A stretch of DNA of 64,000 bases from contig JAWKVR010000008.1 of assembly GCA_041397945.1 (NCBI GenBank), forward strand, positions 23,414 through 87,413, given 5' to 3'. This stretch comes from Geminicoccaceae bacterium. GTDB lineage: Bacteria; Pseudomonadota; Alphaproteobacteria; Geminicoccales; Geminicoccaceae. Each line of letters starts with the position of its first letter. Positions within the stretch are counted from its first letter, which is position 1. Positions 1 through 64,000 of this stretch are shown here, piece after piece. The notes below the pieces were generated by a model that saw only the letters and a list, made by a program, of their open reading frames with translations, did not search any database and was not told where the DNA came from. Made by a program: the position numbers and the translations under genes.

Positions 1-738
1 CGGCGAAGTCGAGGGCGTAGAAGAGGGCGGTGCCCATGAGGCCGAGCAGCACCAGCGAGACGAAGACGCGGGTGGTGTCGAACTGGCCCTGCGCCACCAG
101 CACGAGAAAGCCGAGCCCGTTGCCGCCGGCGACGAACTCGCCGACGATCGCACCCACGAGCGCGAAGGAGATCGCCACCTTCATCCCGGCGAAGAGGCTG
201 GGCAGCGCATTGGGGAAGCGGATCTTGGCCAGGATCTGGAGCTGCGAGGCCCGGGCGGCACGCGCCAGGTTGACCATGTCCGGATCGACCGAGCGGAGCC
301 CCAGCACCGTGTCGATGACGATGGGAAAGAGCGCGAGCATCACGGCGACCGCGATCTTGGGCTCCATGCCGGTGCCGAGCCAGATGACGAAGAGGGGGGC
401 GAGCGCCACCTTGGGCACGCTGTTGAGCGCCACCAGCAGCGTGTAGATCGTCCGCTCCAGGAAGCGCGAGTAGACGATGGCGACGGCCAGCGCGATGCCC
501 AGTGCCACCGAGACGGCGAAGGCGAGGAGCGTGGTCCAGAGCGTGTAGCCCATGTGCCGGATGAAGAGCCTGGCGCGTCGTCAGGAACTCGGCTGCATGG
601 CGCTCGGTGGCGGCAGGAAGATCTTCGGCGGCTGTAGTACCAGACGCCGATCTCCCAGATGGCACCAGGGCCGCGAGCACGAGGAGCACGTCGCGCGTGT
701 GCGCTCTCGCCTATGAGATGCTTGCGCCAGAAGCTCAT
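1..738 (-). pseudogene. ABC transporter permease, NitT/TauT (SsuC/TauC-like) family; 3' end runs off the window; N-terminal part frameshifted
   Basis: My minus-strand translation of 1-555 is continuous (MGYTLWTTLLAFAVSVALGIALAVAIVYSRFLERTIYTLLVALNSVPKVALAPLFVIWLGTGMEPKIAVAVMLALFPIVIDTVLGLRSVDPDMVNLARAARASQLQILAKIRFPNALPSLFAGMKVAISFALVGAIVGEFVAGG...). The start MSFWRKHL at 738 overlaps the upstream ATPase stop (ATGA). The frame changes at least twice between 560 and 700. Confidence 0.8.
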
Positions 739-1490
739 TCCTTGAGGATCCCGAGCTCCGCGAAGTGATGGCGGATCTGCGCACATAGGCACCGAAGGCC
801 GGCGTCTCGCGGATGGCGAGCGGGCGCGGGCGCGGCAGGTCGATGTCGATCACCTCGACGATCCGCTCCCGGGCCGCGCGACATCATCACCACCCGGTCG
901 GCGAGGTAGACCGATCTGACGATCGAGTGGGTGATGAAGAGCACGGTCTTGTTGCTGCCCTGCCAGATCCGCGTCAGCTCGACATTGAGGTCGTCGCGGG
1001 TCATGGCATCGAGCGCGCCGAACGGCTCGTCCATGAGCAAAAGCTCGGGATCGCAGAGCAGCGCACGGCAGATCGCGGCGCGCTGGCGCATGCCGCCCGA
1101 GAGCTCCCAGGGGTGGCGGTCCTCGAAGCTCCTCGAGGCCGAAGCGGGCAAGGAGCGTATGGCCCGCTCGCGGTAGTCGGCGCGCGGCCGGCGCAGGAGC
1201 CTCGGCCTGCAGGAGCACGCCGTCGAGGATGGTCCGCCAGCCGAACAGCACGTCGCGCTGGAAGACGATGCCCATGGCGTCGGGCGGGCCGTCGAGCTGG
1301 CGGCCGTTGATCTCGATCGTGCCGCGGGTGATCGGCACGAGCCTGGCCAGGCACTTCATCAGCGTGCTCTGCCGCCGCTGGGGCCGACGACGCTGACGAA
1401 GGAGCCGGGCTATGCTGAGGTCGATGCGCCATTGCTTTGAGGTCGTCGTAGCGCGGCACAGATAAGACCTTCAGCTGTCGCAGTCGAGTT
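735..1490 (-). pseudogene. ABC transporter ATP-binding protein (NitT/TauT family), multiply frameshifted
   Basis: Fragments lie in three minus frames. [54 protein letters not shown] is in ORF 850-1359. [79 protein letters not shown] is in ORF 735-1151. [23 protein letters not shown] is in ORF 581-853. The 5' limit is approximate. Confidence 0.75.
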
Positions 1491-1500
1491 TCACATATCT

Positions 1501-2498
1501 TCAGCCGTCCGGAGCCGACGGCTCGCCCTGGCCCATCGCAGAGGTCGCGCCAGGTGGTGTCGTCCGGTCCCGCCGTCGATTCAGTTCACCGTCTCCTTGG
1601 CCGCTCCCGCTCGCGCGCCTGCCAGCCGATCGGCTTGCCCGCAGTCGCCGGGTGTCGAAATAGTCGAGGGTGATGCGGATTCGCTCGCGCAGGACATCCG
1701 GTTCAGGTTCGCATCGGGCCGCTGCGCGATGATCGCCTCGACGCCGAGATCGGGGTTCTCCCGATGGCCGCCCATGAAAGGCGCGCTGCTCCACGGCGAC
1801 CAGCTTGGCGAGCCCTCGCCGCGCTCGGCGATGGTCTCCTCGGTGGCGATCAGGCCGTAGCTCGGGAAGGTGAGGCCGGCCTCGTCCAGCATCATGCACT
1901 TGGAGTGGACGGTTGGCCTCGGCGACCGGGATCGCCGAGCCGATGGTCGACATGAGCCCGTCCGCCCGGCCCGCGGTGTAGGTGCTCCAGAGGGCGGCCG
2001 GATCGACGAACAGCACCTCGACCTTGGTTTCGTCGAGCCCGCCCGCGGCCAGATAGTCGTTGATATAGGCGGCCCAGGGCTGGCCGCGAAGACGACCAGC
2101 GTCTTGCCCTCCAGGATCGGCGATCTTCTCGATTGGCGAATCGCGATCGACGAGGATGCAGAGATCGGTCTTCCGCTGGAAGCCGGCGAGAAGGACGGAT
2201 CTGGCCCTTGCTCGCGCGAGGCGCCGAGCAGGCCGAGCTGGATTCCTGGCCGACATCCACTCCGCCGGCATTGACGAGCTGCAGCGTGTTGCCGGAGCCG
2301 CGGCCGTCCTGCAGGTCCACGGCGAGCCCCCGCCTCCTCGAACCAGCCTTCGTTCATGGCGTAGTGCAGCCGGCATGCACGCCCCAGGGCGAGAAATCGA
2401 GCCGGACCGTCAGGGGCTCCTGCGCCGCGGCCGAAACGGCCGTGGCCGCCATGAGCGCTGCCGCCAGGGTGCTTGCGAGGATCGTCCGTCATTGCCAT
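1501..2498 (-). pseudogene. NMT1/THI5-like periplasmic substrate-binding protein of the ABC system, multiply frameshifted
   Basis: The ATG at 2498 follows the SD AAGGAGAG. A signal peptide (ILASTLAAALMAATAVSAAAQEPLTVRLDFSPWGVHAG) is readable only after a frame change. Then come HYAMNEGWFEEAG, DLQDGRGSGNTLQLVNAGGVDVGQ (ORF 1892-2320) and AAYINDYLAAGGLDETKVEVLFVDPAALWSTYTAGRADGLMSTIGSAIPVAE (ORF 1501-2376). Confidence 0.7.
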
Positions 2499-2520
2499 CG
2501 TCGTCTCTCCTTCTTGGGGC

Positions 2521-4263
2521 CTAGGTTCTTTGTGCGCGCAGTTCGGCGCGCAGCGCGCTGTGGTCGCGCTTCGGGTCCAGCACGAACGTGTCGGACAGGA
2601 CCACGCCATGCCGGTCGCGGGCGAAGCCTTTGCTGATCTTCTCCGTCGAGCGCGTCCATGGCGACCAGCGCCGGGTCGCGCTCGAGCGGGTCGCCATAGC
2701 CGCCGCCCCGGCCTGGTGGTGGCAGAGGCTGTCGCCGGCCTCGATGTTCCGCGTCAGCTTGCCGGGCACGGCCTCGCATTCCTGTCCGGGTTCAGGATAT
2801 TCTCGGTGAGCGCACCCGGCCCGCCACCGAAGAGGCCGTAGGGCGCGTGCGCCGTGCGGTCGGAGCGGAGCCAGAGCATCGCCCGGGTGCGAGCAGGCGA
2901 TAGGTGCGCGTTAGGCCGAGTTCGCCCGCCACTTGCCGGCGCCGCAGGAATCCTGGCGGGTAGCCAGCCTCGATGCGCACGGGATAGCGCGCTCGAGCGT
3001 CTCGACCGGCAGTGGACATGTTCTGCGCCGGGTTGGTGACCCCTCGATGCCGTCCTGGTCGACGCGCCCGCCCCAGGCGCCGTTGATCATGTCGACGAGG
3101 ATGAAGGGCTCGCCTGTCGCCTTGTCGTAGCCGCCGAGGCAGACGACCGTATTGCCGCCCTCGCCGGCGGCCATGACCTTCGCCGGGACGATCTGGGCGA
3201 GGCAGCCGAGCATGGTGTCGACGATGCGATAGCCGGTGAGTGCTCGAGCAGCGACGGCGGCGGGCAGACGCGGGTTCAGCATCGAGCCCGGGGGCGCCTT
3301 GACGTCGATGCAGCGAAAGACGCCGGCATTGTTGGGGGCGTCGGAATCCATCACACAGCGCACGCTGAGATAGCTCGCCGACTTGACGAAGGAGAGGGTC
3401 GAGTTGATGGCCCCCTTCACCTGGGGCGCGCTGCCCTCGAAATCGACCTCGAGATGGCCGCCCTTGACCGTGATGGTCGCCTTGATCGGGATCGGCGCCT
3501 CGCTGAACCCGTCGCCGTCGATGTGGTCGGTGAAGCTGTAGGTGCCGTCCGGCCAGGCCTCGATCTCGCGCCGGGTCATGGTCTCGGCGTAGTCGAGCAG
3601 ACCCTCGATGTAGCTCTCGACCGTGGCGGCACCGTAGCGCTCGAAAAGGCGCAGGAACTGCCGCTCGCCCATCCGGCAGGTGGCGTATTGCGAGAGCAGG
3701 TCGCCGATCACGAGGTCCGGCACGCGGACGTTCTTCTCGAACAGGCGAAAGAGCGTCTTGTTCGGCTCGCCCCGCTCGTAGAGCTTGAGCGGCGGGACGC
3801 GGAAGCCCTCCTGGAAGATCTCGGTCGAATCCGAGGCGTTCGAGCCCGGCACCCGCCCGCCCATGTCGCAATGATGGGCGACGACGACGGTGAAGCCCTG
3901 CAGCCGGTCCTGAAAGAAGACCGGCTTGAACATGAAGATGTCCGGGAGATGCATGCCGCCCTCGTAAGGGTCGTTCATGATCACCACGTCGCCCGGGGCG
4001 AAATCATTGCCGAACGCGGCCTGCACCGCCGCGATGGCGTCCGGCACCGCCCCCAGGTGCAGGGCCACGGTCTTCGCCTGGGCGACGATGCGGCCATGGC
4101 GGTCGCAGAGCGTCGTCGAGTAGTCCAGCACCTCGCGGACGATGTGCGAGCGGGCCGTGCGCATCACGTTGTAGGCCATCTCGTCGACGATGGTGTCGAA
4201 GGCGTTCTTGATCACCGCGAAGGTGATCGGGTCGGCGAATGGCGAGGCGTCGCCCGTGGTCAT
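2521..4263 (-). pseudogene. hyuB: Hydantoinase B / N-methylhydantoinase B (oxoprolinase family), C-terminal third multiply frameshifted
   Basis: MTTGDASPFADPITFAVIKNAFDTIVDEMAYNVMRTARSHIVREVLDYSTTLCDRHGRIVAQ...MNDPYEGGMHLPDIFMFKPVFF is continuous from 4263 to about 3060. The remainder (VTNPAQNMST, VRIEAGY, GGGYGDPLERDPALVAMDALDGKISKGFARDRHGVVL) is scattered over other frames (ORFs 2792-3871, 2489-2779, 2521-2769). The ATG overlaps the hyuA stop (ATGA). Confidence 0.8.
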
Positions 4264-6369
4264 GCCCGGCCCTCCAGCTCGATGCGCAGATTGCCCGCCT
4301 CGTCCGCCCGCACCACGGCACCGGGCGGGATGACCGCGGTCGTGTCCAGGCTCTCGACGATCAGCGGCCCCCTGGCCTCCGCCGGCAAGGCCGAGCGGTC
4401 GATGACCGGGGTCGCAATGAAGCCCGATTCGCGCGCGAACATCACCTGACGCTCCGAAGCAACGTTCGTGCCACCGGTGGCGCTGGTGCGGTAGCTCGTG
4501 AAGTCGAGCTTGCCGGCGCGGTGGCCGCGCCCGACGACGCGCACCGCCACGACCTCGACCCGGTCCCGGGCGCGATACTCGTAGACCCGCTCGTAGGCTT
4601 CGAGGAAGCGCTCGCGCAAGGGGGCCGCGAAGCCCGCCTCGATCGTGCCGTCGACGGTGATGCCGAGCTCGGTGTCCTGGTTCTCGAAGCGAAGATCGAC
4701 CTGCCGCTCGATCGCCATCTGGTCGGCGGTGAAGCCCTCCTCGGCCAGCGCCGCCCGGGCCTCGGCCTCGAGCCGGTCGAGCGCCGCCCGGAGCCGCGGC
4801 GCCAAAGCTTCGTCGAGCGGTGCGGGCAGGGGCTCGACGAGCTGGCGCTCGATGTCGCCCGCCAGCATGCCGGCGGCGGTGAAGACGCCGGCGAGGTTGG
4901 GCATGAGGACGTGGCGGATGCCGAGCATGGCGGCCAGGTCGCAGGCATGGACCGGGCCGCTGCCGCCGAAGGCGACGAGCGTGAAGTCGCGCGGGTCGAC
5001 CCCGCGCTCGACGGTCACCGCCCGGATGGCACGGGCCATGTTGAGATTGGCGATCTCGCGCACGCCCAGCGCCGCCGCGGCGGCGTCGACGCCGAGCGGG
5101 GCGGCGACATGGGTGGTGATCGCCGCATGGGAGAGGCTGGCGTCGATGGCGAGCGTGCCGCCGGCGAGCTCCTTCGGGTTGAGGTAGCCGAGCACCACGT
5201 TGGCATCGGTCACCGTGGCCTGGCTGCCGCCCTTGCCGTAGCAGGCGGGGCCGGGCTCCGCACCGGCCGAGCGTGGCCCCATGAATGAGCCCGCCCGCAT
5301 CGACCCGGGCGATCGAGCCCGCCCCGGCGCCCACCTCGGCGATGTCGATGGTGGGGGCGCGCATGAGGAAGCCGCCGGCCTTGATGAAGCGGCTCGGCGT
5401 CGAGATGCCGGCGCGGAACTCGTACTCGTTGGTGCGCGAGATGCGCCCGCCCTCGATCAGCGCCGCCTTCGCCGTGGTGCCGCCCATGTCGAAGACGATG
5501 AGATCGTCGATCCGCCCGGCCGTGCCGAGCCGGGCAGCACCGTGACACCGGCGGCCGGGCCGGAGGAGATGAAGAGCACGGGCTGCTCCTGCGCCACGGC
5601 GGCGCGGACGAGGCCGCCGCTCGAGCTGACGACGAGAAGCGGCGCCGCTATGCCGAGCGCTTCGAGCCCGGCGGCCAGCCTCGCCAGATAGCCCCGCATG
5701 ACCGGCAGGACATAGGCGTTGACCACGGCCGTGCTGGTCCGCTCGTACTCCTTGGCCTCGGGCTGCAGGGCGGCGGAAAGCGTGACCTCGAAATCCGGGA
5801 ATGTGCGCCGTCAGGAGCTCGCCGACACGTCGCTCGTGGGTGCCGTTGCGGTAGCTGCTGATGAAGCAGACCGCGACCGAGGTGATGCCCAGCGCCTGCA
5901 GCCGCCGGCCGGCCTCCAGCACCTCCGCGTCGACGAGCGGTGTGAGCACCGCCCCGTCGGCGGCGACCCGCTCGGTCACCTCGAGCCGGGCGCGCCGCGG
6001 CACCAGGGGCTCGGGCTTGGTCCAGGCGAGATCGAACATCTCGGGCGTGCGCACCCGGCCGATCTCGAGGATGTCGCGAAACCCCTTGGTGGTGATCAGC
6101 CCGGTCGGCGCCCCGGTGCGCTCGAGGAGCGTGTTCGAGCCGATGGTCGTGCCATGCAGGACTTCGACCACCTGCCCGCCATCGACGCCGGCCTCGGCCA
6201 TGATCGAGCGAATCCCGTCGAGCACGGCGGCCTCGGGCGCCGAGCCGGTCGAGGAGACCTTGGCGGTCAGCACCTCGCCGTCCCCCTTGCTCAGCACGAG
6301 GTCGGTGAAGGTGCCGCCGATATCCGCGGCGATCCTGACCGTCCGATCGCCCGGTCCCGCCAAGCCCAT
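4260..6369 (-). pseudogene. hyuA: Hydantoinase A / N-methylhydantoinase A, at least 3 frameshifts
   Basis: VRIAADIGGTFTDLVLSKGDGEVLTAKVSST...ITTKGFRDILEIGR (ORF 2911-6378 frame). VNAYVLPVMRGYLARLAAGLEALGIAAPLLVVSSSGG (ORF 5457-5726). IVFDMGGTTAKAALIEGG. C-terminal 346 aa in ORF 4260-5300. Likely start MGLAG at 6369, with SD AGGGA 8 nt upstream. Confidence 0.8.
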
Positions 6370-6383
6370 GCGCCGCATCCCTA

Positions 6384-9567: not shown

Positions 9568-10785
9568 ATGCGACAGACATGGCGGTGGTTCGGCCCGAAG
9601 GACCTGGTCTCGATCGACGACATGCTGCAGGCGGGCGTCGAAGGCGTGGTCTCGGCCCTGCACCACGTCCCGACAGGTGCCGTCTGGAGCCCGGCCGAGA
9701 TCGGGCAGCGGCAGGCGGAGATCGGCCGTCGGCGTGACGGCACGCCCTCGGGCCTCGCCTGGGAGGTGGTCGAGAGCCTGCCGGTCTCCGAGGACATCAA
9801 GAAGCAGAAGGGCGAGTGGCGCGCCCATTTCGCCAACTATGGCGAGAGCCTGCGCCATCTGGCCGCCGCCGGGATCGAGGTGGTCTGCTACAATTTCATG
9901 CCGGTGCTCGACTGGACCCGCACCGACCTCACCTACCGGGTCGCCCATGGCGGCACCTGCATGCGCTTCGACCTCGTCGACTTCGCCGCCTTCGACCTCT
10001 TCGTCCTCGAGCGGCGGGGTGCCGGGGAGGACTATCCCGAGGCGGTGCGCGACGCCGCGGCCGAGCGCTTCGCCGGCATGGCCGACGCCCAAAAGCAGCA
10101 GCTCACCGGCAATATCGCCTTCGGCCTGCCGGGTGCCGCCGAGACCATGACGCTGGACGACCTGCGCCGGCACCTGGCCGAGTACGGTGCGATCTCCGCC
10201 GAAACGCTGCGCGCCCACTTCACCGCCTTCCTCGAGGCGGTGGTGCCGGTCGCCGAGGAGGTCGGCATCAGGCTCTGCTGCCACCCCGACGACCCGCCGT
10301 TCCCGCTCCTCGGCCTGCCCCGGATCATGTCGACCGAAGCCGACTACGCGGCGATGATGCAGGCGGTCGACAGCCCCGCCAACGGCATCACGCTCTGCTC
10401 GGGCTCGCTCGGCGCCAGGCCGGACAACGACCTGCCTGGCATGATGGAGCGCCTCGGCGACCGGGTGCATTTCCTGCACCTGCGCAACGTCCACCGCGAG
10501 AGCGACCGGGTCCAGGGCTCATTCTACGAGGACGAGCACCTGGCCGGGGCGACCGACATGGTGGCCCTGCTGGCCGCCGTCATCGCCGAGGAGCGCCGCC
10601 GCAAGGCCGCCGGCCGCGTCGACCACACGATCCCCATGCGGCCCGACCACGGCCAGGACATCCTCGACGATCTCGGCCGCCGGGCGCAGCCGGGCTACCC
10701 GTCGATCGGCCGCCTCAAGGGGCTCGCCGAGCTGCGCGGCGTCATGACGGCACTCGCCCACCCGCGCTGGGGCATGGCATCCTGA
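9568..10785 (+). CDS. uxuA: Mannonate dehydratase
   Basis: 405-aa ORF starting MRQTWRWFGPKDLVSIDDMLQAGVEGVVSALHHVPTGAVW, a UxuA hallmark N-terminus. Intact. Confidence 0.9.
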   Translation: MRQTWRWFGPKDLVSIDDMLQAGVEGVVSALHHVPTGAVWSPAEIGQRQAEIGRRRDGTPSGLAWEVVESLPVSEDIKKQKGEWRAHFANYGESLRHLAAAGIEVVCYNFMPVLDWTRTDLTYRVAHGGTCMRFDLVDFAAFDLFVLERRGAGEDYPEAVRDAAAERFAGMADAQKQQLTGNIAFGLPGAAETMTLDDLRRHLAEYGAISAETLRAHFTAFLEAVVPVAEEVGIRLCCHPDDPPFPLLGLPRIMSTEADYAAMMQAVDSPANGITLCSGSLGARPDNDLPGMMERLGDRVHFLHLRNVHRESDRVQGSFYEDEHLAGATDMVALLAAVIAEERRRKAAGRVDHTIPMRPDHGQDILDDLGRRAQPGYPSIGRLKGLAELRGVMTALAHPRWGMAS

Positions 10786-12252: not shown

Positions 12253-12290
12253 CCCCCTCGGCCGACTGATCGCGGCCCTGCCGCAGCCGT

Positions 12291-14795: not shown

Positions 14796-14857
14796 CCGCC
14801 TGAGCCCGAGCGCGGGCCGGCCCCGGCCGGCTCGCGCGACCTGCGAAGCGGACGACC

Positions 14858-17369: not shown

Positions 17370-17378
17370 GACCCGACC

Positions 17379-48926: not shown

Positions 48927-48983
48927 CCCCTCCACCCGCTGCGTCCGCCCGGCGGCCCGAAAACGAACCCGGGCACTCCGGGA

Positions 48984-51623: not shown

Positions 51624-51736
51624 GCCTTGCCCTTCGCCCCCGGCTCACCCCGGCACCCATAGCGCCGCCGCACCCTGCTTGTCATGCCGGGCCCGAGCCG
51701 ATAGGCAACGGCGAAACGGCCAGCGGGGGGGCAGGC

Positions 51737-53343: not shown

Positions 53344-53419
53344 GAGTGGACGTGATGGCCTTCACGCCGGACACCCGAGCCGCTACGCAGACGCCCGAGG
53401 ACAAAAAGGGAAGGGAACC

Positions 53420-54430: not shown

Positions 54431-54795
54431 CGTCCGCGCCGGCTCTGGAGATCCTGCTCAAGCGCGCCTACGAGCCGGCAGTCGCCGAAGACGGCTGCCG
54501 CGTTCTCGTCGACCGGCTCTGGCCGCGCGGTCGAAGCCGGATCGACCTCGCGATCGACCACTGGGCGAAAGACGTCGCACCCGGTCCAGCCCTGCGCCGC
54601 TGGTACGGCCACGATCCGGGCAAATGGGGCGCCTTCCGGAGCCGCTACGAGCAGGAACTCGACGCCAACCAGGAAGCGGTGAGGGATCTCCTCGAGCGCT
54701 GTCGCAGGGGCCGCGTCACCCTCGTCTTCGGCGCCCGCGACGTCGAGCACAGCCACGCGATTGTCCTGCGTGACCATCTGCTGCGGCTGGCCTGA
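54415..54795 (+). CDS. DUF488 family protein
   Basis: ILLKRAYEPAVAEDGCRVLVDRLWPRGRSRIDLAIDHWAKDVAPGPALRRWYGHDPGKWGAFRSRY...VTLVFGARDVEHSHAIVL. The ATG at 54415 overlaps the upstream gene's end. Confidence 0.8.
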   Translation: MGCRLTSAPALEILLKRAYEPAVAEDGCRVLVDRLWPRGRSRIDLAIDHWAKDVAPGPALRRWYGHDPGKWGAFRSRYEQELDANQEAVRDLLERCRRGRVTLVFGARDVEHSHAIVLRDHLLRLA

Positions 54796-54958
54796 AGACG
54801 GTCATCGGGCGTTGCCGGCAGCCGGGCGGGGCCATGCTGAGGACCGCGTGCCTCGTTGCCGTGCTTGTGCATGGGCCGAGGGTGCTCTAACCGGTCGTCA
54901 GCTGAACATGGTGGGCCGGTGATTTGCCAGGCACCACCGCCAAGAAAGGGATGGCTCG

Positions 54959-56209
54959 ATGAACAGACGGATCAGGGCGCTGCTTGCCGGAACGACCATG
55001 CTGATGGCTTCGGCCGGTTGGGCCGCAGCCGAGGATGTCGAGGTCCTGCACTGGTGGACTTCGGGCGGCGAGGCAGCCGCGCTCAATGTGCTGAAGGGCA
55101 ACCTCGAAGCCGAGGGCATCGGCTGGCAGGACATGCCGGTCGCCGGCGGTGGCGGCGAGCAGGCGATGACCGTGCTGCGCGCCCGGGTGACCGGCGGCAA
55201 TCCGCCGACCGCCGTGCAGATGCTCGGCTTCGATATCCAGGACTGGGCAGCGCTCGGCGTCGTCGCCGACCTCAACGAGCTGGCTGCCGAGGAGAACTGG
55301 GACGCCGTCGTGCCGGCCGCCCTACAGGAGTTCTCGAAGTTCGATGGCGTGTGGGTGGCGGCCCCCGTCAATGTCCACTCGACCAACTGGGTCTGGGCCA
55401 ACAAGGCCATTTTCGATGAGCTCGGCCTCGCCCAGCCGACGAGCTGGGAGGAGCTGGTCGCGGCCCTCGATGCCATCAAGGCTGCTGGCTACACGGCCGT
55501 GGCCCATGGCGGCCAGGCCTGGCAGGATGCGACCATCTTCGACGCGGTCGTCGTCTCGACCGGCGGGCCCGAGTTCTACAAGGCCGCGATGATCGATCTC
55601 GATCCCGAGGCGCTCGGCTCCGAGACGATGAAGGAGGCCTTCGACCGGATGGCCGTCATCCGCTCCTATGTGGACGACAACTTCTCCGGCCGCGACTGGA
55701 ACCTCGCGACCGCCATGGTCATCAACAAGGAGGCCGGGGTCCAGTTCATGGGCGACTGGGCCAAGGGCGAGTTCCTCAATGCCGGCAAGGTGCCGGGCGA
55801 GGACTTTCTCTGCTTCCGCTTCCCCGGCACGCAGGGCACGGTGACCTTCAACGCGGACCAGTTCGTGATGTTCGAGGTCGGCGACGAGGGCCGGGAAGCG
55901 CAGAAGAAGCTGGCGAGCGCCATTCTCGATCCGGGCTTCCAGATCGCCTTCAACAAGGTCAAGGGCTCCGTGCCGGCCCGCACCGACGTTGCCGGCGACG
56001 AGCTCGATGCCTGCGGCCAGCAGGGCATGGCAGAGCTCGCCGAGGCGGCCGCGGCCGGCCATCTCTACGGCTCGATGGCGCATGGCCACGGCGCGCCGGC
56101 GGCGGTCAAGAACGCCGTCTACGACGTGGTCACCGCCCATTTCAACGGCGAGTACGACAGCGCCACGGCAGTCGAGGAGTTGGTCTCGGCGGTCGAAGGG
56201 GCGCAATGA
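54959..56209 (+). CDS. gtsA: Carbohydrate (glucose/mannose-type) ABC transporter substrate-binding protein
   Basis: [60 protein letters not shown] and MGDWAKGEF closely parallel Pseudomonas GtsA as I recall it. Confidence 0.85.
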
Positions 56210-56293
56210 CCTCGCGAGGGGCCGCCGTCCAGGCGGCGGCCCCGTCGCTCCTTCCGCCGGCTGACATGCGGGCGAAAGGGCCGGCAGGGGCGC

Positions 56294-57184
56294 ATGGCTG
56301 ACACGCGCGGCCGGCTGCAGGAGCTGCTGACGAGGATCGAGCTGGCGCCGAGCTTCGCTGCGGTGCTGCTCTTCGTCTACGGCTTCATCTTCTTCACGGG
56401 CTGGCTCTCCTTCACCGATTCGCGCATCCTGCCGAGCTTCGGCTGGGTCGGGTTCGAGAACTACGTGCGCCTGTTCGGGCTGCGGCACTGGACCATCGCC
56501 GTCCAGAACCTTGCCATCTTTGGCCTGCTCTACATCCTTTTCTGCTCGGCCATGGGCCTGCTGCTCGCCATCCTGCTCGACCAGAAGATCCGGGGCGAGG
56601 GCTTCCTCAGGCCGATCTACCTCTACCCCATGGCGCTGTCGTTCATCGTCACCGGCACCGCCTGGAAATGGTTCCTCGACCCCGGCATCGGGCTCGAGCA
56701 GGTGGTTCGCTCATGGGGCTTCGCGGACTTCACCTTCGGCTGGATCAAGGACAGCTCGATGGCGATCTACTGCATCGTCATCGCGGCGGTCTGGCAGTCG
56801 ACCGGTTTCGTCATGGCGATGTTCCTCGCCGGCCTGCGCGGCATCGACGGCGAGATCATGAAGGCGGCACAGATCGACGGCGCCTCGACCTTCCAGCTCT
56901 ACCGGCGGATCATCATCCCTCAGTTGCGGCCGGCCTTCCTTTCGGCCTTCGTCGTGCTCTCGCATCTCGCCATCAAGTCCTACGACCTGGTGATCGCGCT
57001 GACCGGCGGCGGGCCCGGCCGCGCCACGGAGATGCCGGCGACCTTCATGTACTCCTATACCTTCACGCGCAACCAGATGGGCGTGGGCGCCGCCTCGGCC
57101 GTCATCATGCTGATGATGATCGCCTCCGTGATCGTCCCCTACCTCTATGCGGAGATGCGGGAGGGCAGGCATGGCGGCCACTAG
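56294..57184 (+). CDS. gtsB: Carbohydrate ABC transporter permease
   Basis: Intact 296-aa MalF/UgpA-type permease: ...AQIDGASTFQLYRRIIIPQLRPAFLSAFVVL. Confidence 0.85.
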   Translation: MADTRGRLQELLTRIELAPSFAAVLLFVYGFIFFTGWLSFTDSRILPSFGWVGFENYVRLFGLRHWTIAVQNLAIFGLLYILFCSAMGLLLAILLDQKIRGEGFLRPIYLYPMALSFIVTGTAWKWFLDPGIGLEQVVRSWGFADFTFGWIKDSSMAIYCIVIAAVWQSTGFVMAMFLAGLRGIDGEIMKAAQIDGASTFQLYRRIIIPQLRPAFLSAFVVLSHLAIKSYDLVIALTGGGPGRATEMPATFMYSYTFTRNQMGVGAASAVIMLMMIASVIVPYLYAEMREGRHGGH

Positions 57185-58061
57185 CGCGCCTGCCGTCGAC
57201 GGCACGGTCACGGCCAACCGGCTGGCGCGGGCCGTGCTCTATGCGGCGCTCCTCGTCTTCGCCCTCTATTTCCTCCTGCCGCTATACGTGATGCTGGTGA
57301 ACTCGGTGAAGCCCTTGGCCGAGATCCAGGGTGGCAACATGCTGGCGCTTCCCGAGGCGTTCACCCTCGAGCCCTGGGCCGGCGCCTGGAGCACGGCCCA
57401 GGTCGGCGTCGATCCGACGGGGCTTCGACCCTACTTCTGGAACTCGATCAAGATGGTCGTGCCGGCCGTCCTGATCTCGACGCTGCTTGGTGCACTGAAC
57501 GGCTATGTCCTGACCAAGTGGCGGTTCAAAGGCGACCGGCTGGTCTTCGCGCTGATGCTCTTCTCCTGCTTCATCCCGTTCCAGATCGTCCTCATCCCGA
57601 TGGCGCGCATCCTCGGCAGCGTCGGCCTCGCGGGCACCACGGCGGGCCTCGTCCTCGTCCACGTGGTCTATGGCCTCGGCTTCACCACCCTCTTCTTCCG
57701 CAACTACTACGACGCCTTCCCGAGCGAGCTGGTCAAGGCGGCGCAGATCGACGGTGCGGGGTTCTTCCGCATTTTCTGGCGGATCCTGCTGCCGAGCTCC
57801 GGGCCGATCGTCACGGTCACCGTCATCTGGCAGTTCACCAATGTCTGGAACGACTTCCTCTTCGGCGCCTCGTTCGCCGGCTTCGGCTCGACGCCGATGA
57901 CGGTGGCGCTCAACAACCTGGTCAGCTCGTCGACCGGGGTGAAGGAGTACAACGTGCACTTCGCCGGTGCCGTGCTGGCGGCCCTGCCGACCCTGATCGT
58001 CTACATCGTCTCCGGACGCTATTTCGTGCGCGGCCTGATGGCCGGTGCCGTGAAAGGCTGA
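57171..58061 (+). CDS. gtsC: Carbohydrate ABC transporter permease
   Basis: MalG/UgpE-type: AAQIDGAGFFRIFWRILLPSSGPIVTVTVIWQFTNVWNDFLF. Start MAATSAP at 57171. Confidence 0.85.
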   Translation: MAATSAPAVDGTVTANRLARAVLYAALLVFALYFLLPLYVMLVNSVKPLAEIQGGNMLALPEAFTLEPWAGAWSTAQVGVDPTGLRPYFWNSIKMVVPAVLISTLLGALNGYVLTKWRFKGDRLVFALMLFSCFIPFQIVLIPMARILGSVGLAGTTAGLVLVHVVYGLGFTTLFFRNYYDAFPSELVKAAQIDGAGFFRIFWRILLPSSGPIVTVTVIWQFTNVWNDFLFGASFAGFGSTPMTVALNNLVSSSTGVKEYNVHFAGAVLAALPTLIVYIVSGRYFVRGLMAGAVKG

Positions 58062-58067
58062 GGCAGC

Positions 58068-59237
58068 ATGGCTTCGCTCGATATCGACCGGGTCGAGAAG
58101 CGCTTCGGTGCGACACGCGTGCTCGAAGGGATCGACATCGCCGTCGAGGACGGCGAATTCCTGGTCCTGGTGGGCCCGTCGGGCTGCGGCAAGTCCACCC
58201 TGCTCGCGCTGATCGCCGGGCTGGAGAGCGTCTCTGCCGGCGAGATCCGGATCGATGGCGTGCGGGTCAACGAGCGCCATCCCAAGGACCGCGACATCGC
58301 CATGGTGTTCCAGTCCTACGCGCTCTACCCCAACATGACCGTTGCCCAGAACATGGCCTTCGGCCTCGAGATGCGCGGCGTGCCCAAGGCCGAGCGCGAC
58401 GTCGCCGTGGCCGACGCCGCGCGTCTCCTGCAGATCGAGCCGCTTCTGGACCGCAAGCCCGGCCAGCTCTCGGGCGGCCAGCGGCAGCGTGTGGCAATGG
58501 GGCGGGCCCTCGTCCGCCAGCCCCGGATCTTCCTCTTCGACGAGCCGCTCTCCAATCTCGACGCCAAGCTCAGGGTCGAGATGCGGACCGAGATCAAGAA
58601 GCTGCACCAGCGTTTGGACGCCACCATCGTCTACGTGACCCATGACCAGATCGAGGCGATGACGCTGGCGACGCGGATCGCCATTATGAACAAGGGCGTC
58701 CTGCAGCAGCTCGGCACGCCGCGCGAGCTCTACGACCGACCGGCCAACACCTTCGTCGCCACATTCATCGGCTCGCCGGCGATGAACCTCATTCCCGGCG
58801 AGGTCCGGAGCGGGCAGTTCTGCGCCGAGGGCAACATCGCGCTGCCGCTCGCAACGCCGGCGCCCGACGGGCCGGCAACACTCGGCCTGCGGCCGGAGAG
58901 CATCACCGAGGCGATGGACGACGCCACGGGGATCGAGCTCGCCGTCGAGGTCACCGAGCCGACCGGTCCCGACACGCTCGCCGTCGTCCGCATTGCCGGG
59001 ATCGAGGCGACGGCGCGCCTGCGTGCGGACACGGCTGTCGTACCCGGCAGAAGTGCCGCGTTCACGCTCGACATGAGCAAGGCTTCGCTGTTCCATCCGC
59101 AGAGCGGCGACCGGCTCGACTGGCGTGGCCGAGCTCATCGTGCTCTTCGCGTCGGCCTTCCTGGCCGCGACCATCCTGCCGTTCGCGTCCGAGATCACCC
59201 TCGCTGGCATGGCGATGGCCGGCTGGGGTGCCAATGA
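58068..59237 (+). CDS. malK: Sugar ABC transporter ATP-binding protein (MalK/UgpC-like); the last ~38 codons look like read-through after a lost stop
   Basis: [47 protein letters not shown]. Recognisable sequence ends at ...[12 protein letters not shown] (about 59120). The tail [19 protein letters not shown]... overlaps the next gene in another frame. Confidence 0.85.
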
Positions 59238-59545
59238 CCCTCTGGGTCACGGCAACCGCCGGCAATACGCTGGGGTCGCTGGTCAACTGGGTGCTCGGCC
59301 GCTGGGCGCGGCGCTGGCGCGACCATCCCCGTTTCCCGCTGCGCCCGGCGCAGCTGGATCGCGCCACCCGGCACTTCCAGCGCTGGGGTATCTGGTCGCT
59401 GCTCTTCGCCTGGGTTCCGGTCGTGGGCGACCCCTTGACCGTGGTCGCCGGCCTCTTCCGCACGCCCTTCCTGCCGACCCTGCTTCTCATCGCCATCGGC
59501 AAGGGCGCGCGCTATGCCGTGATCCTCGGCCTGGTTCCCGCCTGA
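59125..59545 (+). pseudogene. YqaA/DedA-related small membrane protein, one frameshift near 59225
   Basis: [34 protein letters not shown] (ORF 59125-), then WVTATAGNTLGSLVNWVLGRWARRW...WGIWSLLFAWVPVVGDPLTVVAGLFRTPFLPTLLLIAIGKGARY (ORF 59228-59545). Confidence 0.7.
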
Positions 59546-59551
59546 GCGGTC

Positions 59552-60670
59552 TCAGCTGTCGAGCACGTCCAGCGGATCGGCGTAGTCGAGCCCCTGGGCG
59601 TCGGCCACGGCGCGGTAGGTGATCTTGCCCGCATGCACGTTGAGGCCGGCGCGGAAGTGCGGGTTCTCCAGCAGGGCGGCCTTGTAGCCCTTGTCAGCGA
59701 GGGCCAGGGCATAGGGCAGCGTGACATTATTGAGCGCCAGGGTCGAGGTCCGGGGCACCGCACCCGGCATGTTGGCGACGCAGTAGTGAACCACGTCGTC
59801 GACGATATAGGTCGGCTCGGCATGGGTCGTCGCATGCGAGGTCTCGAAGCAGCCGCCCTGGTCGATGGCGACGTCGACCAGCACGGTGCCCGGGCGCATC
59901 CGTCTGACCATGTCGGCGGTGACCAGCTTCGGCGCGCTGGCGCCGGCCACCAGCACGGCGCCGATCACGAGGTCGGCGTCGACCACATAGTGGTCGAGCG
60001 ATGCCCGCTGCGAGTAGACGGTATTCAGGCTGGGCCCGAAGCGGCGGGCGAGGTGCTGGAGCACGTCGACATTCCGGTCGAGCACGGTGACGTCCGCGGC
60101 CATGCCGAGGGCCATCAGGATCGCGTTCTCGCCGACCATGCCGCCGCCGATCACGGTCACCTTCGCACTCTCGACACCCGGCACGCCGCCGAGCAGAATG
60201 CCGCAGCCGCCATGCGCCCGCTCGAGGCAGTGGGCGCCGGCCTGGATGGCGAGGCGTCCCGCGACCTGTGACATCGGCGCCAGGAGCGGCAGGTGCCCAT
60301 GACTGTCGGTAACCGTCTCATAGGCGATGCACGTGGCACCGCTGCGCATGAGATCGGTGGTCTGCTCCGGGTCCGGGGCGAGATGGAGATAGGTGAAGAG
60401 GATCTGGCCCGGGCGCAGCATGGCCCGCTCGACTGCCTGCGGCTCCTTCACCTTCACGATCATGTCAGCGGCGGCGAAGATGTCGGCCGCCGTGGCGGCG
60501 ATGCTGGCGCCGGCGGCCGCATAGGCGGCGTCGTCCGAGCCGATCCCGGTGCCGGCGCCGCTCTCGACGAGCACCTGGTGCCCGTGGGCGACGAACTCCA
60601 TCACGCTCGCCGGCGTCAGGCCAACGCGGTACTCGTGATTCTTGATCTCCTTCGGCACGCCAACCCGCAT
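59552..60670 (-). CDS. ald: Alanine dehydrogenase
   Basis: [23 protein letters not shown]...KVKEPQ...[11 protein letters not shown]...[13 protein letters not shown]; 372 aa, intact. Confidence 0.93.
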
Positions 60671-60790
60671 CGCTCTCACCCCTCTTGCTTCTTGAACGGC
60701 CGCCGACGACCGTAGCACGCTGCGCGCCTGTCGTCGCGCGCAGGGCGCTGCTATGCTCGGGACGCGGTTGAACCTGCGGATGGGCTGGAC

Positions 60791-63235
60791 ATGGCGAGCG
60801 AGCTGCCTTCGACCTGCGACGCCGTGGTCATTGGCGGCGGCATCATCGGCTGCTCGATCGCCTACCACCTGACGAAGCTCGGGATTCACGACGTCGTCGT
60901 GCTCGAGCGCAAGCGGCTGACCTCCGGCACCACCTGGCATGCGGCCGGGCTGATCGGCCAGCTGCGGGCCTCGCGGCGGATGACCGAGCTCGCGAAATAC
61001 ACTTCCGAGCTGCTCTGGTCGCTCGAAGCCGAGACCGGCCTCTCGACAGGCTTTCGCCAGAACGGGTCGATCAGCGTCGCGACCCATGCCGAGCGCTTCG
61101 AGGAGCTGAAGCGCGGCGCCTCGATGGCGAAGAACTTCGGCCTGGCGGTCGAGGTGCTGACTCCGGGCGACATCGCGAGCCGCTACCCGCTCTTGCAGAC
61201 CGATGACCTCGTGGGTGGCATCTTCCTGCCCAAGGACGGCCAGGCCGATCCCGCCAACGTCACCATGGCCTATGCCAAGGGTGCGCGGAACGGCGGTGCC
61301 CGGATCTTCGAGCAGGTGGCGGTCGAGCGGATCCTGGTGGAGCAGGGCAGGGCAGCGGGTGTGCTGACCGCAGAAGGGCCGATCCGGGCCACGACCACCG
61401 TGCTGGCCGCAGGAATGTGGAGCCATGCGATCGCCCGCGCGGTCGGCGTCGCCGTGCCGCTGCACGCGGCCGAGCACTTCTATATCGTCACCGAGCCCAT
61501 TGCCGACCTGCCCCGCGACCTGCCGGTGCTGCGGGTCCCGGACGAATGCGCCTATGTCAAGGAGGACGCCGGCAAGCTCCTGCTCGGTGCCTTCGAGCCG
61601 GTGGCCAAGCCCTGGGGCATGGCCGGCATTCCCGACGAATTCGAGTTCACGACCCTGCCCGACGATGTCGAGCACTTCGAGCCGATCCTGGAAGCCGCCG
61701 TCCGGCGGCTGCCGGTGCTGGCCGAGACCGGGATCCAGACCTTCTTCAACGGCCCGGAGAGCTTCACCCCGGACGATCGGTATCTGCTCGGCGAGACGGC
61801 GGAGCTCAGGGATCTCTTCGTCGCCTGCGGCATGAACTCGATCGGCATCCAGTCATCCGGTGGGGTCGGCAAGGTGCTGGCGGAATGGATCCGGGACCGG
61901 CACATGCCGGTCGATCTGGTCGACGTCGATGTCCGCCGGATGCAGAGGTTCCAGGCCAACCGGCGCTATCTGCGCGAGCGGACGACGGAGACGCTCGGGC
62001 TGCTCTACGCCATGCACTGGCCGCACCGGCAATACGCGACCGCGCGCGGGGTCCGGCGCTCGCCCTTCCATGATCGTCTCCTGGCGCTGGGTGCCGTCAT
62101 GGGCGAACAGTCCGGCTGGGAGCGACCGAACTGGTTCGCGCCGGCTGGTGGCGAGCGCGACTACCGCTATTCCTGGGGCCGGCAGAACTGGTTCGAGCCG
62201 TGCGCCGCCGAATGCCGGGCGGTGCGCGATGCGGTGGCCCTGTTCGACCAGTCGAGCTTCACGAAGTACCTCGTGACCGGCCCGGATGCGCTGGCCCTCC
62301 TCAACCATGTCTCGGCCGCCGAGATGGACGTGCCGGTCGGCCGGGTGGTGTACACCCAATGGCTGAACGAACGGGGTGGCATCGAGGCCGATCTCACGGT
62401 CACGCGCACCGGCGAGACCGCGTTCCTGGTCGTCACCACAGCCGCCGGCCAGACCCGTGATCTCGCCTGGCTGCGCGGGCATGCCGCCCAGGACGGCCGC
62501 TGCGCGATCGTCGATCTCACCTCCGGCCTGCCGATGCTGGGCCTCATGGGGCCGCGAAGTCGCGCCCTGCTCGAGGCGGTTTCCGGCGAGACCCTGGCCG
62601 ACGCCGAGTTCCCCTTCGCCACCTCGCGGGAGCTGGAGGTCGGCTGCGCCGTGGTCAGGGCCAGCCGCCTCACCTATGTCGGCGAACTCGGCTACGAGCT
62701 CTATGTGCCGGCCGAGTTCGCCGCACATGTCTTCGACGTTCTGGTCGAGGCCGGCAGCGGGTTCGGCCTGCGCATGGCCGGCTATCATGCCATGAATGCC
62801 TGTCGCATGGAGAAGTCCTACCGTCACTGGGGCCACGACATTTCCGTGGAGGACACACCGCTCGAGGCCGGCCTCGGCTTTGCCGTCGGCTGGCGGAAGC
62901 CGGCCTTCATCGGCCGTGACGCGCTTCTCCGGCAGCGCGAGGCCGGCGGACCGACGCGGCGTCTCGTGCAGTTCAGGCTGTCCGATCCACTCGAGCTGCT
63001 GCACCACGAGGAGCCCGTCTGGTCGGGGGGCGAGATCGTCGGCTCGATCACCTCGGGCGCCTACGGCCACCGGATCGACGCCTCGCTCGGCATGGGCTAT
63101 GTGCAGTTGGCGGGTGGGGCGAAGGGCCTGGCGCCGGGGCGTGAGTTCGCCATCGAGATCGGCTGGCGGCGGGTCGCGGCCGAGGCCCGGCTCGAGGCCT
63201 TCTACGATCCGGCCAACGAGAGAATTCGCGCCTGA
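60791..63235 (+). CDS. Dimethylglycine/sarcosine dehydrogenase-family enzyme (FAD oxidoreductase fused to a GcvT-like folate-binding domain)
   Basis: Intact 814 aa. DAVVIGGGIIGCSIAYHL, SGTTWHAAGL, then a C-terminal aminomethyltransferase-like region (DQSSFTKYLVTGPDA..., RLTYVGELGYELYVP). Confidence 0.88.
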   Translation: MASELPSTCDAVVIGGGIIGCSIAYHLTKLGIHDVVVLERKRLTSGTTWHAAGLIGQLRASRRMTELAKYTSELLWSLEAETGLSTGFRQNGSISVATHAERFEELKRGASMAKNFGLAVEVLTPGDIASRYPLLQTDDLVGGIFLPKDGQADPANVTMAYAKGARNGGARIFEQVAVERILVEQGRAAGVLTAEGPIRATTTVLAAGMWSHAIARAVGVAVPLHAAEHFYIVTEPIADLPRDLPVLRVPDECAYVKEDAGKLLLGAFEPVAKPWGMAGIPDEFEFTTLPDDVEHFEPILEAAVRRLPVLAETGIQTFFNGPESFTPDDRYLLGETAELRDLFVACGMNSIGIQSSGGVGKVLAEWIRDRHMPVDLVDVDVRRMQRFQANRRYLRERTTETLGLLYAMHWPHRQYATARGVRRSPFHDRLLALGAVMGEQSGWERPNWFAPAGGERDYRYSWGRQNWFEPCAAECRAVRDAVALFDQSSFTKYLVTGPDALALLNHVSAAEMDVPVGRVVYTQWLNERGGIEADLTVTRTGETAFLVVTTAAGQTRDLAWLRGHAAQDGRCAIVDLTSGLPMLGLMGPRSRALLEAVSGETLADAEFPFATSRELEVGCAVVRASRLTYVGELGYELYVPAEFAAHVFDVLVEAGSGFGLRMAGYHAMNACRMEKSYRHWGHDISVEDTPLEAGLGFAVGWRKPAFIGRDALLRQREAGGPTRRLVQFRLSDPLELLHHEEPVWSGGEIVGSITSGAYGHRIDASLGMGYVQLAGGAKGLAPGREFAIEIGWRRVAAEARLEAFYDPANERIRA

Positions 63236-63260
63236 AGGCGCGGCAATTGGGGAGCAGACG

Positions 63261-64000
63261 ATGACGCTGATGACGCCGTCCGAGGCGATGGTCGAGACTC
63301 TGGTGGCGCAGGGGGTCACCCATGTCTTCGGCATCGTGGGCTCGGCCTACATGGACGCGCTCGACATTTTCGAGCCCGCCGGGATCCGCTTCATCTCCGT
63401 GGCGCACGAGCAGGGTGCCGGGCACATGGCGGACGGCTACGCCCGGGCGTCGGGGCGGCATGGCGTCTGCATCGCGCAGAACGGCCCTGGCATCACCAAT
63501 TTCGTCACCTCCGTGGCGGCCGCCTACTGGGCGCACTCACCTGTGGTCGTCATCACCCCGGAGACCGGATCGAACACGCAGGGGCTGGGCGGCTTCCAGG
63601 AAGCCGAGCAGATGCCCTTCTTCGAGCGGATCACCAAGTACCAGGTGCATTGCGGCCATCAGGGGCGGATGGCCGAGCTGCTCGGCCGCTGCTTCGACTA
63701 TGCGATGCTGGAGCGCGGCCCGACCCAGTTCAACATCCCGCGTGATCTCTTCTATGGCGAGGCGGACTATACGATCCAGAAGCCGATCAGGGTCGAGCGT
63801 GGCCCCGGTGGCCCGGAAAGCCTCGACGCCGCGGCGGCCCTGATCGCCGACGCGAAGTTCCCCGTCATCCTTTCGGGTGGCGGCGTCGTGATGAGCGACG
63901 GCGTGGGCGAGGTGATCAAGCTCGCCGAGCATCTGCAGGCGCCGGTCATCAACACCTACCTGCACAACGACAGCTTTCCGAGGTCGCATCCGCTCTGGTG
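63261..64000 (+). CDS. xsc: Thiamine-diphosphate enzyme, sulfoacetaldehyde acetyltransferase-like; 3'-partial at window edge
   Basis: My translation from the ATG at 63261: MTLMTPSEAMVETLVAQGVTHVFGIVGSAYMDALDIFEPAGIRFISVAHEQGAGHMADGYARASGRHGVCIAQNGPGITNFVTSVAAAYWAHSPVVVITPE...AKFPVILSGGGVVMSDG...YLHNDSFPRSHPLW. This is very similar to Xsc as I recall it. The ORF is absent from the track because it is open at the window end. Confidence 0.75.
   Translation, partial: MTLMTPSEAMVETLVAQGVTHVFGIVGSAYMDALDIFEPAGIRFISVAHEQGAGHMADGYARASGRHGVCIAQNGPGITNFVTSVAAAYWAHSPVVVITPETGSNTQGLGGFQEAEQMPFFERITKYQVHCGHQGRMAELLGRCFDYAMLERGPTQFNIPRDLFYGEADYTIQKPIRVERGPGGPESLDAAAALIADAKFPVILSGGGVVMSDGVGEVIKLAEHLQAPVINTYLHNDSFPRSHPLW

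Follow-up and report, generated by a model that had tools for sequence, protein, structure and literature searches.

How can about two dozen neighbouring genes be broken, all of them by frameshifts only? The window analysed here, i.e., a stretch of 64,000 nucleotides from the genome of a Geminicoccaceae bacterium, had been described in an earlier note, made from the sequence alone, as carrying such genes in a strongly non-uniform pattern, and two explanations had been left in competition: regional indel-type errors of sequencing or assembly, or a genuine erosion of dispensable genes, with the housekeeping ones spared. The genome carrying the window (hereinafter G000) is a draft MAG of 3.5 Mb in 111 contigs, with a marker completeness of 58%; it is a low-quality draft, most of whose sequence is accurate. 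This assembly is in use as a species representative.

The window was compared with four congeners (G007, G009, G012, and G004; 84–91% nucleotide identity). The frameshifts of each gene were obtained by frameshift-aware protein-to-DNA alignment of the intact ORF products of these relatives against the window, private non-3n indels were counted in MAFFT blocks of four to five genomes covering 42 kb, and reference-free frame switches were called with a codon Viterbi, the stitched readings being then checked with Pfam. Plain blastn gap counting was dropped in favour of frameshift-aware alignment and multi-genome private-indel counts, since compensating gaps were over-called at 85% identity. Several "ORFs" of the relatives are antisense shadow frames; as an example, one is read from the minus strand across the mannitol dehydrogenase gene, and for this reason the apparent stop at 11330 is an artefact.

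In the window, about 25 genes are broken by indels of ±1 or ±2 bases, with essentially no other kind of lesion; this bears out the count given in the earlier note. The 42 kb of aligned blocks contain 105 private non-3n indels in G000 vs. 5 in G007, 18 in G009, 15 in G012, and 6 in G004; likewise, frameshift-aware alignment returned 2.15–2.41 events per kb against the window and 0.22–0.51 between the relatives. Hence, the comparison with close relatives, which had been proposed as a check, assigns the indels to G000 at a rate far above that of the relatives themselves. Among the private indels of G000, deletions outnumber insertions about 2:1, and almost all sizes are 1–2 nt; the same sizes prevail within genes, where no larger deletions occur.

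The damage is arranged in contiguous patches of 0.2–2.8 kb, with about one indel per 60–100 bp (Table 1). These patches begin and stop in the middle of genes and cross intergenic spacers, so that the unit of damage is the DNA patch and not the gene; the pattern looks strongly non-uniform because the genes lying under an error stretch are shredded and their neighbours are intact. The first dense patch harbors about 42 private indels and is bordered by a single clean frame of the permease (1–569) and by clean hyuB sequence (3041–4268). In the second one, 21 private non-3n indels were counted, several of them in the spacer (27343–27417); the cyclase giant has 14 frameshifts, all within 25600–27343, its C-terminal 1.5 kb (24108–25600) being clean, and the Sel1 gene has 5–6. 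The macro/Gfo patch has its end within the Gfo gene, some 280 nt short of the intact upstream cyclase gene. In the 7.4 kb of the block at 18200–25590 there is a single private non-3n indel, sited in a variable repeat, and the block at 50100–64000 has only the two isolated shifts listed there; two permease genes of the Liv cluster (14844–16731) are also clean.

Table 1. Damaged loci and clean blocks of the window (positions in nucleotides; a dot marks features without an assigned strand).
Feature	Position	Strand	Lesions and evidence
Dense patch 1: permease 3' part, ABC ATPase, spacer, SsuA-type binding protein, hyuB 3' end	560–3050	.	9 + 15 + 6 frameshifts by alignment
ABC ATPase	738–1497		9 frameshifts
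SsuA-type binding protein	1610–2753		15 frameshifts
hyuB 3' end	2883–3040		6 frameshifts
hyuA (caprolactamase/hydantoinase A-like)	5270–5810	-	3 spaced frameshifts (-2 at 5280, -1 at 5540, +1 at 5802), backed by all four relatives
Mannitol dehydrogenase patch	10830–11760	+	6 private non-3n deletions; 6 frameshifts
LivJ-like binding-protein gene	13641–14260	+	at least 4 frame switches, codon Viterbi
LivG- and LivF-like ATPase genes	16765–18050	+	about 8 frame switches, codon Viterbi; no congener reference
Clean block: tRNA-Arg, housekeeping genes, cyclase 3' part	18200–25590	.
Dense patch 2: N-terminal ~580 codons of cyclase/NTPase giant, spacer, Sel1 gene	25590–28380	-
dctQ patch	32890–33150	+	7 private non-3n indels; 5 frameshifts, four relatives agree
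curA-like 3' end and 2-hydroxyacid dehydrogenase patch	37220–38480	+	2 + 7 frameshifts
DUF892 (YciE-like) patch	39440–39990	-	11 private non-3n indels in 570 bp
DEAD-box helicase, near 3' end	40165	-	isolated -1; G007 and G012 agree
gltS and its downstream gene, patch(es)	41820–43900	-	13 frameshifts vs. G012
Cupin-region ORFs	44098–45445	+	frame switches, Viterbi only; weaker evidence
Macro-domain gene and Gfo/Idh/MocA oxidoreductase patch	48280–50065	-	6–8 + 14 frameshifts
Largely clean block: cyclase, gts transporter genes, DMGDH-like, others	50100–64000	.
GMC/FAD oxidoreductase	52865	+	isolated -1 (CCC to CC); three relatives agree
yqaA-like gene	59234–59236	+	isolated -2; three relatives agree

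Orthologue alignment and Pfam searches on the stitched readings show that the genes had been identified largely correctly, the DEAD-box helicase being an exception as to its state: considered intact, it carries one shift near its 3' end. Stitching recovered Mannitol_dh and Mannitol_dh_C in the mannitol dehydrogenase, ADH_N_2, ADH_zinc_N, and 2-Hacid_dh_C in the curA-like/2-hydroxyacid dehydrogenase reading, Glt_symporter in gltS, GFO_IDH_MocA domains in the Gfo oxidoreductase, and DUF892 in the YciE-like gene (7–12 frameshifts by alignment); the stitched cupin-region reading has no Pfam match. For the Liv cluster (13.6–18.05 kb), the genus offers no homologous DNA; here, a full-length Peripla_BP_6 (positions 2–342/343) of the LivJ-like protein was recovered only across five frame segments, and the ABC_tran domains of the stitched LivG-/LivF-like reading are broken. 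The corrected hyuA product is 92–93% identical to those of the three closest relatives and 87% identical to that of G004.

Frameshift-aware alignment and stitched readings revealed no genuine in-frame nonsense codon in the window, nine out of ten of the stitched readings being stop-free and the tenth having one stop, in agreement with the earlier remark that no read-through was needed; the "stops" returned by frameshift-aware alignment were dismissed, since they fall in shadow frames or precede the real starts. Alone, this lack is uninformative: in about 9.5 kb, a substitution excess of roughly 1% is expected to produce no more than two to three stops. The homopolymer context of the shift sites, another check proposed in the note, revealed no concentration in the dense patches: the -1 deletions fall at single bases in 45% of cases, vs. 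56% expected, and in runs of three or more in just 12%.

The rest of the assembly was then considered, with aminoacyl-tRNA synthetases as essential single-copy test genes, since rpoB and the 23S rRNA are absent from G000, which has no rRNA operon. Frameshifts amount to 26 in valS (G000:C68:7300-9100), 8 in ileS, 3–4 in leuS, and 3 in metG, none of which contains a stop, with amino acid identities of 86–90%. Thus, the sparing of housekeeping genes holds inside the window but not elsewhere in the assembly. Dense patches number 318 in G000 and account for 6% or more of the assembly, vs. 3 in 632 kb of the relatives' DNA; their length has a median of about 0.6 kb and a maximum of 3.5 kb. Same-strand frame switches reach 1.47 per kb vs. 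0.46–0.96 in the relatives, i.e., about 3,000 in excess genome-wide. At 1 kb or less from a contig end there is only one patch, where random placement would give 20, and contigs shorter than 5 kb have almost none. Neither local GC content (70.3% vs. 69.9%) nor repeats and paralogues (38 vs. 39 of 318) explain their location.

Some DNA of G000 is nearly identical to that of G009, itself a Nanopore + Illumina hybrid MAG. Over 34.9 kb at 99.86% identity, 54 indels vs. 49 mismatches were counted, with 45 of the 54 being bases missing from G000; these sparse indels (about 1.5 per kb) are mostly 1-nt deletions, several of which, by eye, shorten short C/G runs. A molybdopterin oxidoreductase with about 100% amino acid identity to another MAG still carries 4–5 frameshifts. 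An exact 50-mer scan of genome contigs and an exact-protein look-up did not retrieve an independent assembly of the same species, and the best relative among metagenome contigs is 76% identical at the amino acid level.

Patch geometry, the essential genes hit, and the indels accumulated without divergence support the regional error that the earlier note had entertained, and we consider that the frameshifts arose in the assembly consensus and are not mutations that the organism carries, with a probability of roughly 0.92. The roughly two dozen broken genes are truly present in the deposited sequence, but almost certainly they do not record decay. G000 contains several hundred internal stretches with random ±1/±2 indels about every 60–100 bp and roughly 1% extra mismatches, amid accurate sequence; outside them, there is a sparser background, mostly of single-base deletions. 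The likeliest source might be long-read-derived sequence never properly corrected, which could represent either fill or bridges joining accurate short-read contigs in a hybrid assembly or stretches beyond the reach of short-read polishing. The fact that the patches avoid contig ends and that small contigs are nearly free of them fits error-prone (probably long-read) fill within an accurate assembly; since the dense-patch deletions are not homopolymer-bound, very low coverage or near-raw long-read sequence would be needed. Some observations count against an artefact: the dense-patch errors are unlike the classic residual error of a well-covered Nanopore consensus, and G000 lacks an rRNA operon, although one is usually present in long-read assemblies; against a purely artefactual reading, the isolated shifts at 52865, 59236, and 40165 could be real.

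That dispensable catabolic and transport genes have genuinely become pseudogenes through indels, owing to early reductive evolution or to a mismatch-repair defect, appears very unlikely. The broken genes of the window are mostly accessory, the housekeeping block at 18–24 kb is clean, and private substitutions are somewhat more frequent in patches (6.7%) than in clean DNA (5.0%). This reading fails, however, because the clustering follows DNA patches rather than gene classes, with borders in the middle of genes and spacers covered; because valS, ileS, leuS, and metG are each broken repeatedly; because indels equal or exceed substitutions in near-identical DNA; and because the corrected proteins are judged as conserved as their intact neighbours (80–93% vs. 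88–97% amino acid identity to the orthologues). Moreover, indels relate to excess substitutions at about 1:1 or higher, without nonsense codons or larger gene-internal deletions, frameshifts affect even proteins 100% identical to another MAG, and about 3,000 excess frame switches are incompatible with a living cell. A further reading would be a real, very recent hypermutator lineage, e.g., one deficient in mismatch repair and living in an obligate partnership that supplies charged tRNAs or proteins; local bursts of small indels would then be just starting to destroy genes, aminoacyl-tRNA synthetases included, a scenario that we regard as extremely improbable.

A mixed origin, with mostly artefactual damage and a minority of real strain-level pseudogenes, is unlikely but deserves some weight for the GMC/FAD, yqaA-like, and helicase shifts: their surroundings are otherwise clean, each is supported by two to three relatives, and every bacterial genome has some genuine pseudogenes; yet the same sparse class occurs in the DNA near-identical to G009, and the GMC/FAD shift is the shortening of a C run. 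Somewhat more doubtful is a consensus merging reads of two co-occurring related populations, in place of low long-read coverage or gap fill. G000 is indeed a mosaic, parts of C25, C58, C75, and C109 being about 100% identical to G009 and the remainder about 88–92%, and ileS is present in two copies (on C45 and C92); but no segment of the window approaches G009 identity, the expected signature would be allele flips toward the other population instead of private random ±1 indels, and the avoidance of contig ends would be left unexplained. As for programmed frameshifting or non-standard decoding restoring the reading frames, it can be practically discounted: all that speaks for it is that the proteins can be followed by frame hopping, and the shifts are +1, -1, +2, and -2 at unrelated contexts, up to 26 per gene, also in spacers, with no shared shift motif seen.

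The finding is therefore a warning on data quality; as a feature of the organism's biology it is not real. In G000, 6% or more of the sequence, with the excess frame breaks, is unreliable at the single-base level, and without frameshift-aware methods any gene calls, pseudogene counts, completeness estimates, metabolic reconstructions, or inference of "reductive evolution" based on this assembly will come out wrong. For flagging such patches in other high-GC assemblies, the reference-free test adopted here may be of help; it considers the frame switches called with the codon-model Viterbi, how they cluster, and how far they lie from contig ends.

Host-restricted, pseudogene-rich genomes such as those of Mycobacterium leprae and Sodalis show nonsense codons, larger deletions, IS insertions, and raised protein divergence, with essential genes intact. 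G000 resembles them in its many interrupted genes but lacks their mixed lesions, their raised divergence, and their intact essential genes. Hybrid assemblers of the Unicycler or OPERA-MS type introduce long-read bridges or gap fill by design, and, by analogy, the error stretches of G000 might correspond to such bridges, being internal, 0.2–3.5 kb long, and accurately flanked, with contig termini free and small contigs almost free; unlike what is expected from pure short-read contigs, sparse isolated indels also occur outside the patches. Finally, as is known from published work, long-read MAGs acquire frameshifts and pseudogenes through their indel errors, which also lower CheckM completeness (PMC8103633; PMC8518188). 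In comparison with the residual indels of long-read and hybrid MAGs (Cuscó et al. 2021, PMC8103633; Sereika et al. 2022, PMC9262707; Liu et al. 2021, PMC8518188), G000 differs in being strongly bimodal, with clean kilobases vs. patches at about 1–1.7% indels, in its dense patches not being homopolymer-bound, and in its missing rRNA; it shares with them private 1–2 nt indels with deletions exceeding insertions, broken essential genes, many apparent pseudogenes, a depressed completeness, and indels at least as numerous as mismatches in near-identical DNA.

The syntenic DNA of four relatives was used for comparison, and every well-coding ORF of these genomes was aligned to the window (G000:C8:23414-87413, G000 being the draft MAG that contains it) by means of a local protein-to-DNA alignment written for the purpose and permitting ±1/±2 frameshifts. 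Twelve congeners were compared overall, the nearest being G007, G009 and G012 (~88-91% nucleotide identity), followed by G004 (~85%). Genes that are unbroken in two to four of the relatives can be followed in G000 only through many frame hops; the frameshift-only breakage described in the earlier note is therefore real, and it affects about 25 genes of the window. When the proteins are stitched by hopping frames, nine of ten readings contain no stop and the remaining one contains a single stop. The broken genes of the window yielded no genuine in-frame nonsense codon; the apparent stops were rejected, since they lie ahead of a real start or within an ORF that is an antisense shadow. The gene names previously proposed are borne out by the Pfam domains of the stitched readings (BPD_transp_2, ABC_tran, Glt_symporter, GFO_IDH_MocA, DUF892, ADH_N_2/ADH_zinc_N, 2-Hacid_dh_C, Hydantoinase_B and Mannitol_dh), and the NCBIfam assignments are hyuA-like, SsuA family, taurine/nitrate-type ATPase and cyclase.

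Frameshifted genes and indel patches (window positions, unless a contig of G000 is named)
Feature	Position	Frameshifts	Basis
ABC ATPase	738-1497	9	relatives' ORFs
SsuA-family binding protein	1610-2753	15	relatives' ORFs
hyuA	5280, 5540, 5802	3	relatives' ORFs
Cyclase/NTPase giant		14	relatives' ORFs
Sel1		5-6	relatives' ORFs
dctQ		5	relatives' ORFs
curA-like		2	relatives' ORFs
2-hydroxyacid dehydrogenase		7	relatives' ORFs
gltS		13	relatives' ORFs
macro		6-8	relatives' ORFs
Gfo/Idh/MocA		14	relatives' ORFs
Isolated single frameshifts	52865, 59236, 40165	1 each	relatives' ORFs
hyuB 3' end		6	multi-genome MAFFT blocks
Mannitol dehydrogenase		6	multi-genome MAFFT blocks
DUF892 gene		11	multi-genome MAFFT blocks
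Patch 1	560-3050		contiguous indels
Patch	10830-11760		contiguous indels
Patch	25590-28380		contiguous indels
Patch	32890-33150		contiguous indels
Patch	37220-38480		contiguous indels
Patch	39440-39990		contiguous indels
Patch	41820-43900		contiguous indels
Patch	48280-50065		contiguous indels
valS	C68:7278-10090	26	G004, 86% aa identity
ileS	C45:4935-7751	8	G004, 88% aa identity
leuS	C37	3-4	G004, 90% aa identity
metG	C23	3	G004, 90% aa identity

Long open frames can mislead in the 70% G+C DNA of the window. As an example, the 1155-codon ORF at 2911-6378 (-) is a chimera of the hyuB and hyuA frames produced by the shifts, and the ORF opposite the mannitol dehydrogenase, at 10698-12303 (-), is an antisense shadow that is open in the relatives too.

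None of the 12 congeners has a DNA homologue of the Liv-type cluster (13.6-18.05 kb). It was therefore read without a reference, using a seven-state codon Viterbi that had been trained on the long ORFs of G000 itself and that elsewhere in the window recovered the reference-based breakpoints (e.g., 5267/5529/5801). At least four frame switches were detected in the LivJ-like gene and about eight in the two ATPase genes together, the two permease genes being clean; on the stitched reading, Peripla_BP_6 covers 2-342 of its 343 positions, spread over five frames. This branched-chain amino-acid ABC transporter cluster (13300-18230) adjoins a tRNA-Arg(TCT) gene at 18229-18305 and may represent a strain-specific island inserted beside it.

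The frameshift damage of the window exceeds the background on two measures. In the aligned blocks, 105 private indels of a length not divisible by three were counted for G000 in 42 kb, versus 5, 18, 15 and 6 for G007, G009, G012 and G004, respectively, the private indels of the relatives being largely multiples of three; moreover, the ORFs of the relatives meet 2.15-2.41 frameshift events/kb on the window and 0.22-0.51 when relatives are compared with each other. Almost all the indels are -1, +1, -2 or +2, with roughly two deletions for each insertion, and the deleted bases in the patches exhibit no homopolymer preference (45% at single bases vs. 56% expected). Substitutions private to G000 amount to 6.67% in patches (relatives there 4.8-5.2%) and to 5.03% in clean DNA (relatives 4.4-4.5%), so the patches carry roughly 1% of extra substitutions, the same order as the indels.

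The patches, with about one indel per 60-100 bp, pay no regard to gene borders, and the kilobases between them are indel-free at 18.2-25.6 kb and, save for isolated events, at 50.1-64 kb. Patch 1 begins within a permease gene and stops within hyuB, crossing two spacers that both contain indels; the cyclase gene is clean over its 3' 1.5 kb and shredded over the other 1.7 kb, from which the patch continues across the spacer into the Sel1 gene. Two further remarks of the earlier note, a sharp contrast at the cyclase/Gfo junction and compensating shifts at 2365-2498, were partly re-checked and fit this picture.

The key test of genuine erosion is whether the damage stays within dispensable genes. 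In G004 (and in G007, contigs permitting), each Pfam tRNA-synt_1 match is full-length and in one piece, whereas in G000 the matches are fragmented. Once the intact synthetases of G004 were aligned to G000 (names from NCBIfam), valS, ileS, leuS and metG proved frameshifted, with no stop in any of the four alignments; a valS with this many frameshifts could be carried by no organism, and the damage is not limited to dispensable genes.

Genome-wide, with 632 kb of relatives' DNA as a control, same-strand frame switches reach 1.47 per kb in G000 (relatives 0.46-0.96), an excess of about 3,000; 1-kb bins with at least three switches account for 19.3% vs. 2.9%, and those with at least five for 8.4% vs. 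0.5%. Dense patches (at least four switches, gaps ≤300 bp) number 318 in G000 and 3 in the relatives; the former span 218 kb, i.e., 6.2% of the assembly, with a median length of 0.57 kb, a 95th percentile of 1.5 kb and a maximum of 3.5 kb. Neither GC content (70.3% vs. 69.9%) nor the presence of repeats or paralogues (38 vs. 39 of 318) is associated with these patches. Almost all contigs >10 kb are affected, those <5 kb have almost no patches, and a single patch lies within 1 kb of a contig end, versus 20 in length-matched random placement. The assembly (3.53 Mb, 111 contigs, N50 60 kb, ~70% G+C; completeness 57.8%, contamination 0.64%) is also substantially incomplete, besides carrying many errors: rpoB (TIGR02013) and 23S rRNA (RF02541) were not found across the whole of it, and only 28 tRNA genes, for 14 amino acids, are present.

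G009 matches parts of four G000 contigs (C25, C58, C75 and C109) almost perfectly. Over 34.9 kb shared at 99.86% identity, 54 indel events were found against 49 mismatches, with the bases missing from G000 in 45 of the 54; on visual inspection, several of these indels reduce the length of short runs of G or C, and the ORFs at these sites are intact in G009 and broken in G000. A Tat-signal molybdopterin oxidoreductase has ~100% amino acid identity to G009, yet 4-5 frameshifts in G000. An indel:substitution ratio of at least 1 in otherwise identical DNA is no evolutionary signature.

The identity to G009 is 99.7-100% in C25 (~22-41 kb), C58 (1-13 kb), C75 (whole) and C109 (whole) and only ~88-95% in the remaining G000, flanking parts of C25 included; such a pattern looks like either a mosaic bin (or assembly) built from two related populations or very recent exchange. 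In addition to the full ileS, a partial copy exists at C92:1-1802 (~85% amino acid identity to the same G004 query); both contain frameshifts. The two copies suggest that the bin combines two populations, in spite of the contamination estimate, which can miss a second population because broken markers go uncounted.

Of the two explanations left competing by the earlier note, assembly error is supported and genuine erosion is not. Five results contradict real pseudogenisation: the broken synthetases, the geometry of the patches, the spectrum of lesions, proteins that stay conserved, and the indels in DNA identical to G009. Programmed recoding is excluded by shift sizes and contexts that are too varied. 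A consensus of mixed strains is possible as a contributing cause, in keeping with the mosaic bin and its two ileS copies, but it would explain neither the private random indels nor why patches keep away from contig ends. It may be that a few of the isolated shifts are real and the rest artefactual. The frameshifts are thus very probably (about 0.92) an assembly artefact, and their pattern is no real biological feature. Because contig ends are accurate, small contigs clean and the error-prone stretches internal and 0.2-3.5 kb long, long-read sequence that was poorly corrected may have served to join or fill accurate short-read contigs; alternatively, long-read contigs might have been polished only where short reads mapped.

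The frameshift patches of this species-representative genome serve as a warning for its users. G009 (JACKIN01, 'Geminicoccaceae bacterium HK-STAS-PROT-11'), from a Shatin activated sludge study based on a Nanopore + Illumina hybrid (PMC8518188), shows, opposite 59218-64000, a cluster of 11 non-3n indels that are private to it and, as an alignment target, gives frameshifts at roughly double the rate seen with G007 and G012; it seems to be affected by this kind of artefact too, though less densely. Nanopore errors are predominantly indels, which cause frameshifts, spurious pseudogenes and reduced CheckM completeness, with worse effects when coverage is low (PMC8103633), and long-read contigs of complex metagenomes stay error-prone despite short-read polishing (PMC8518188).
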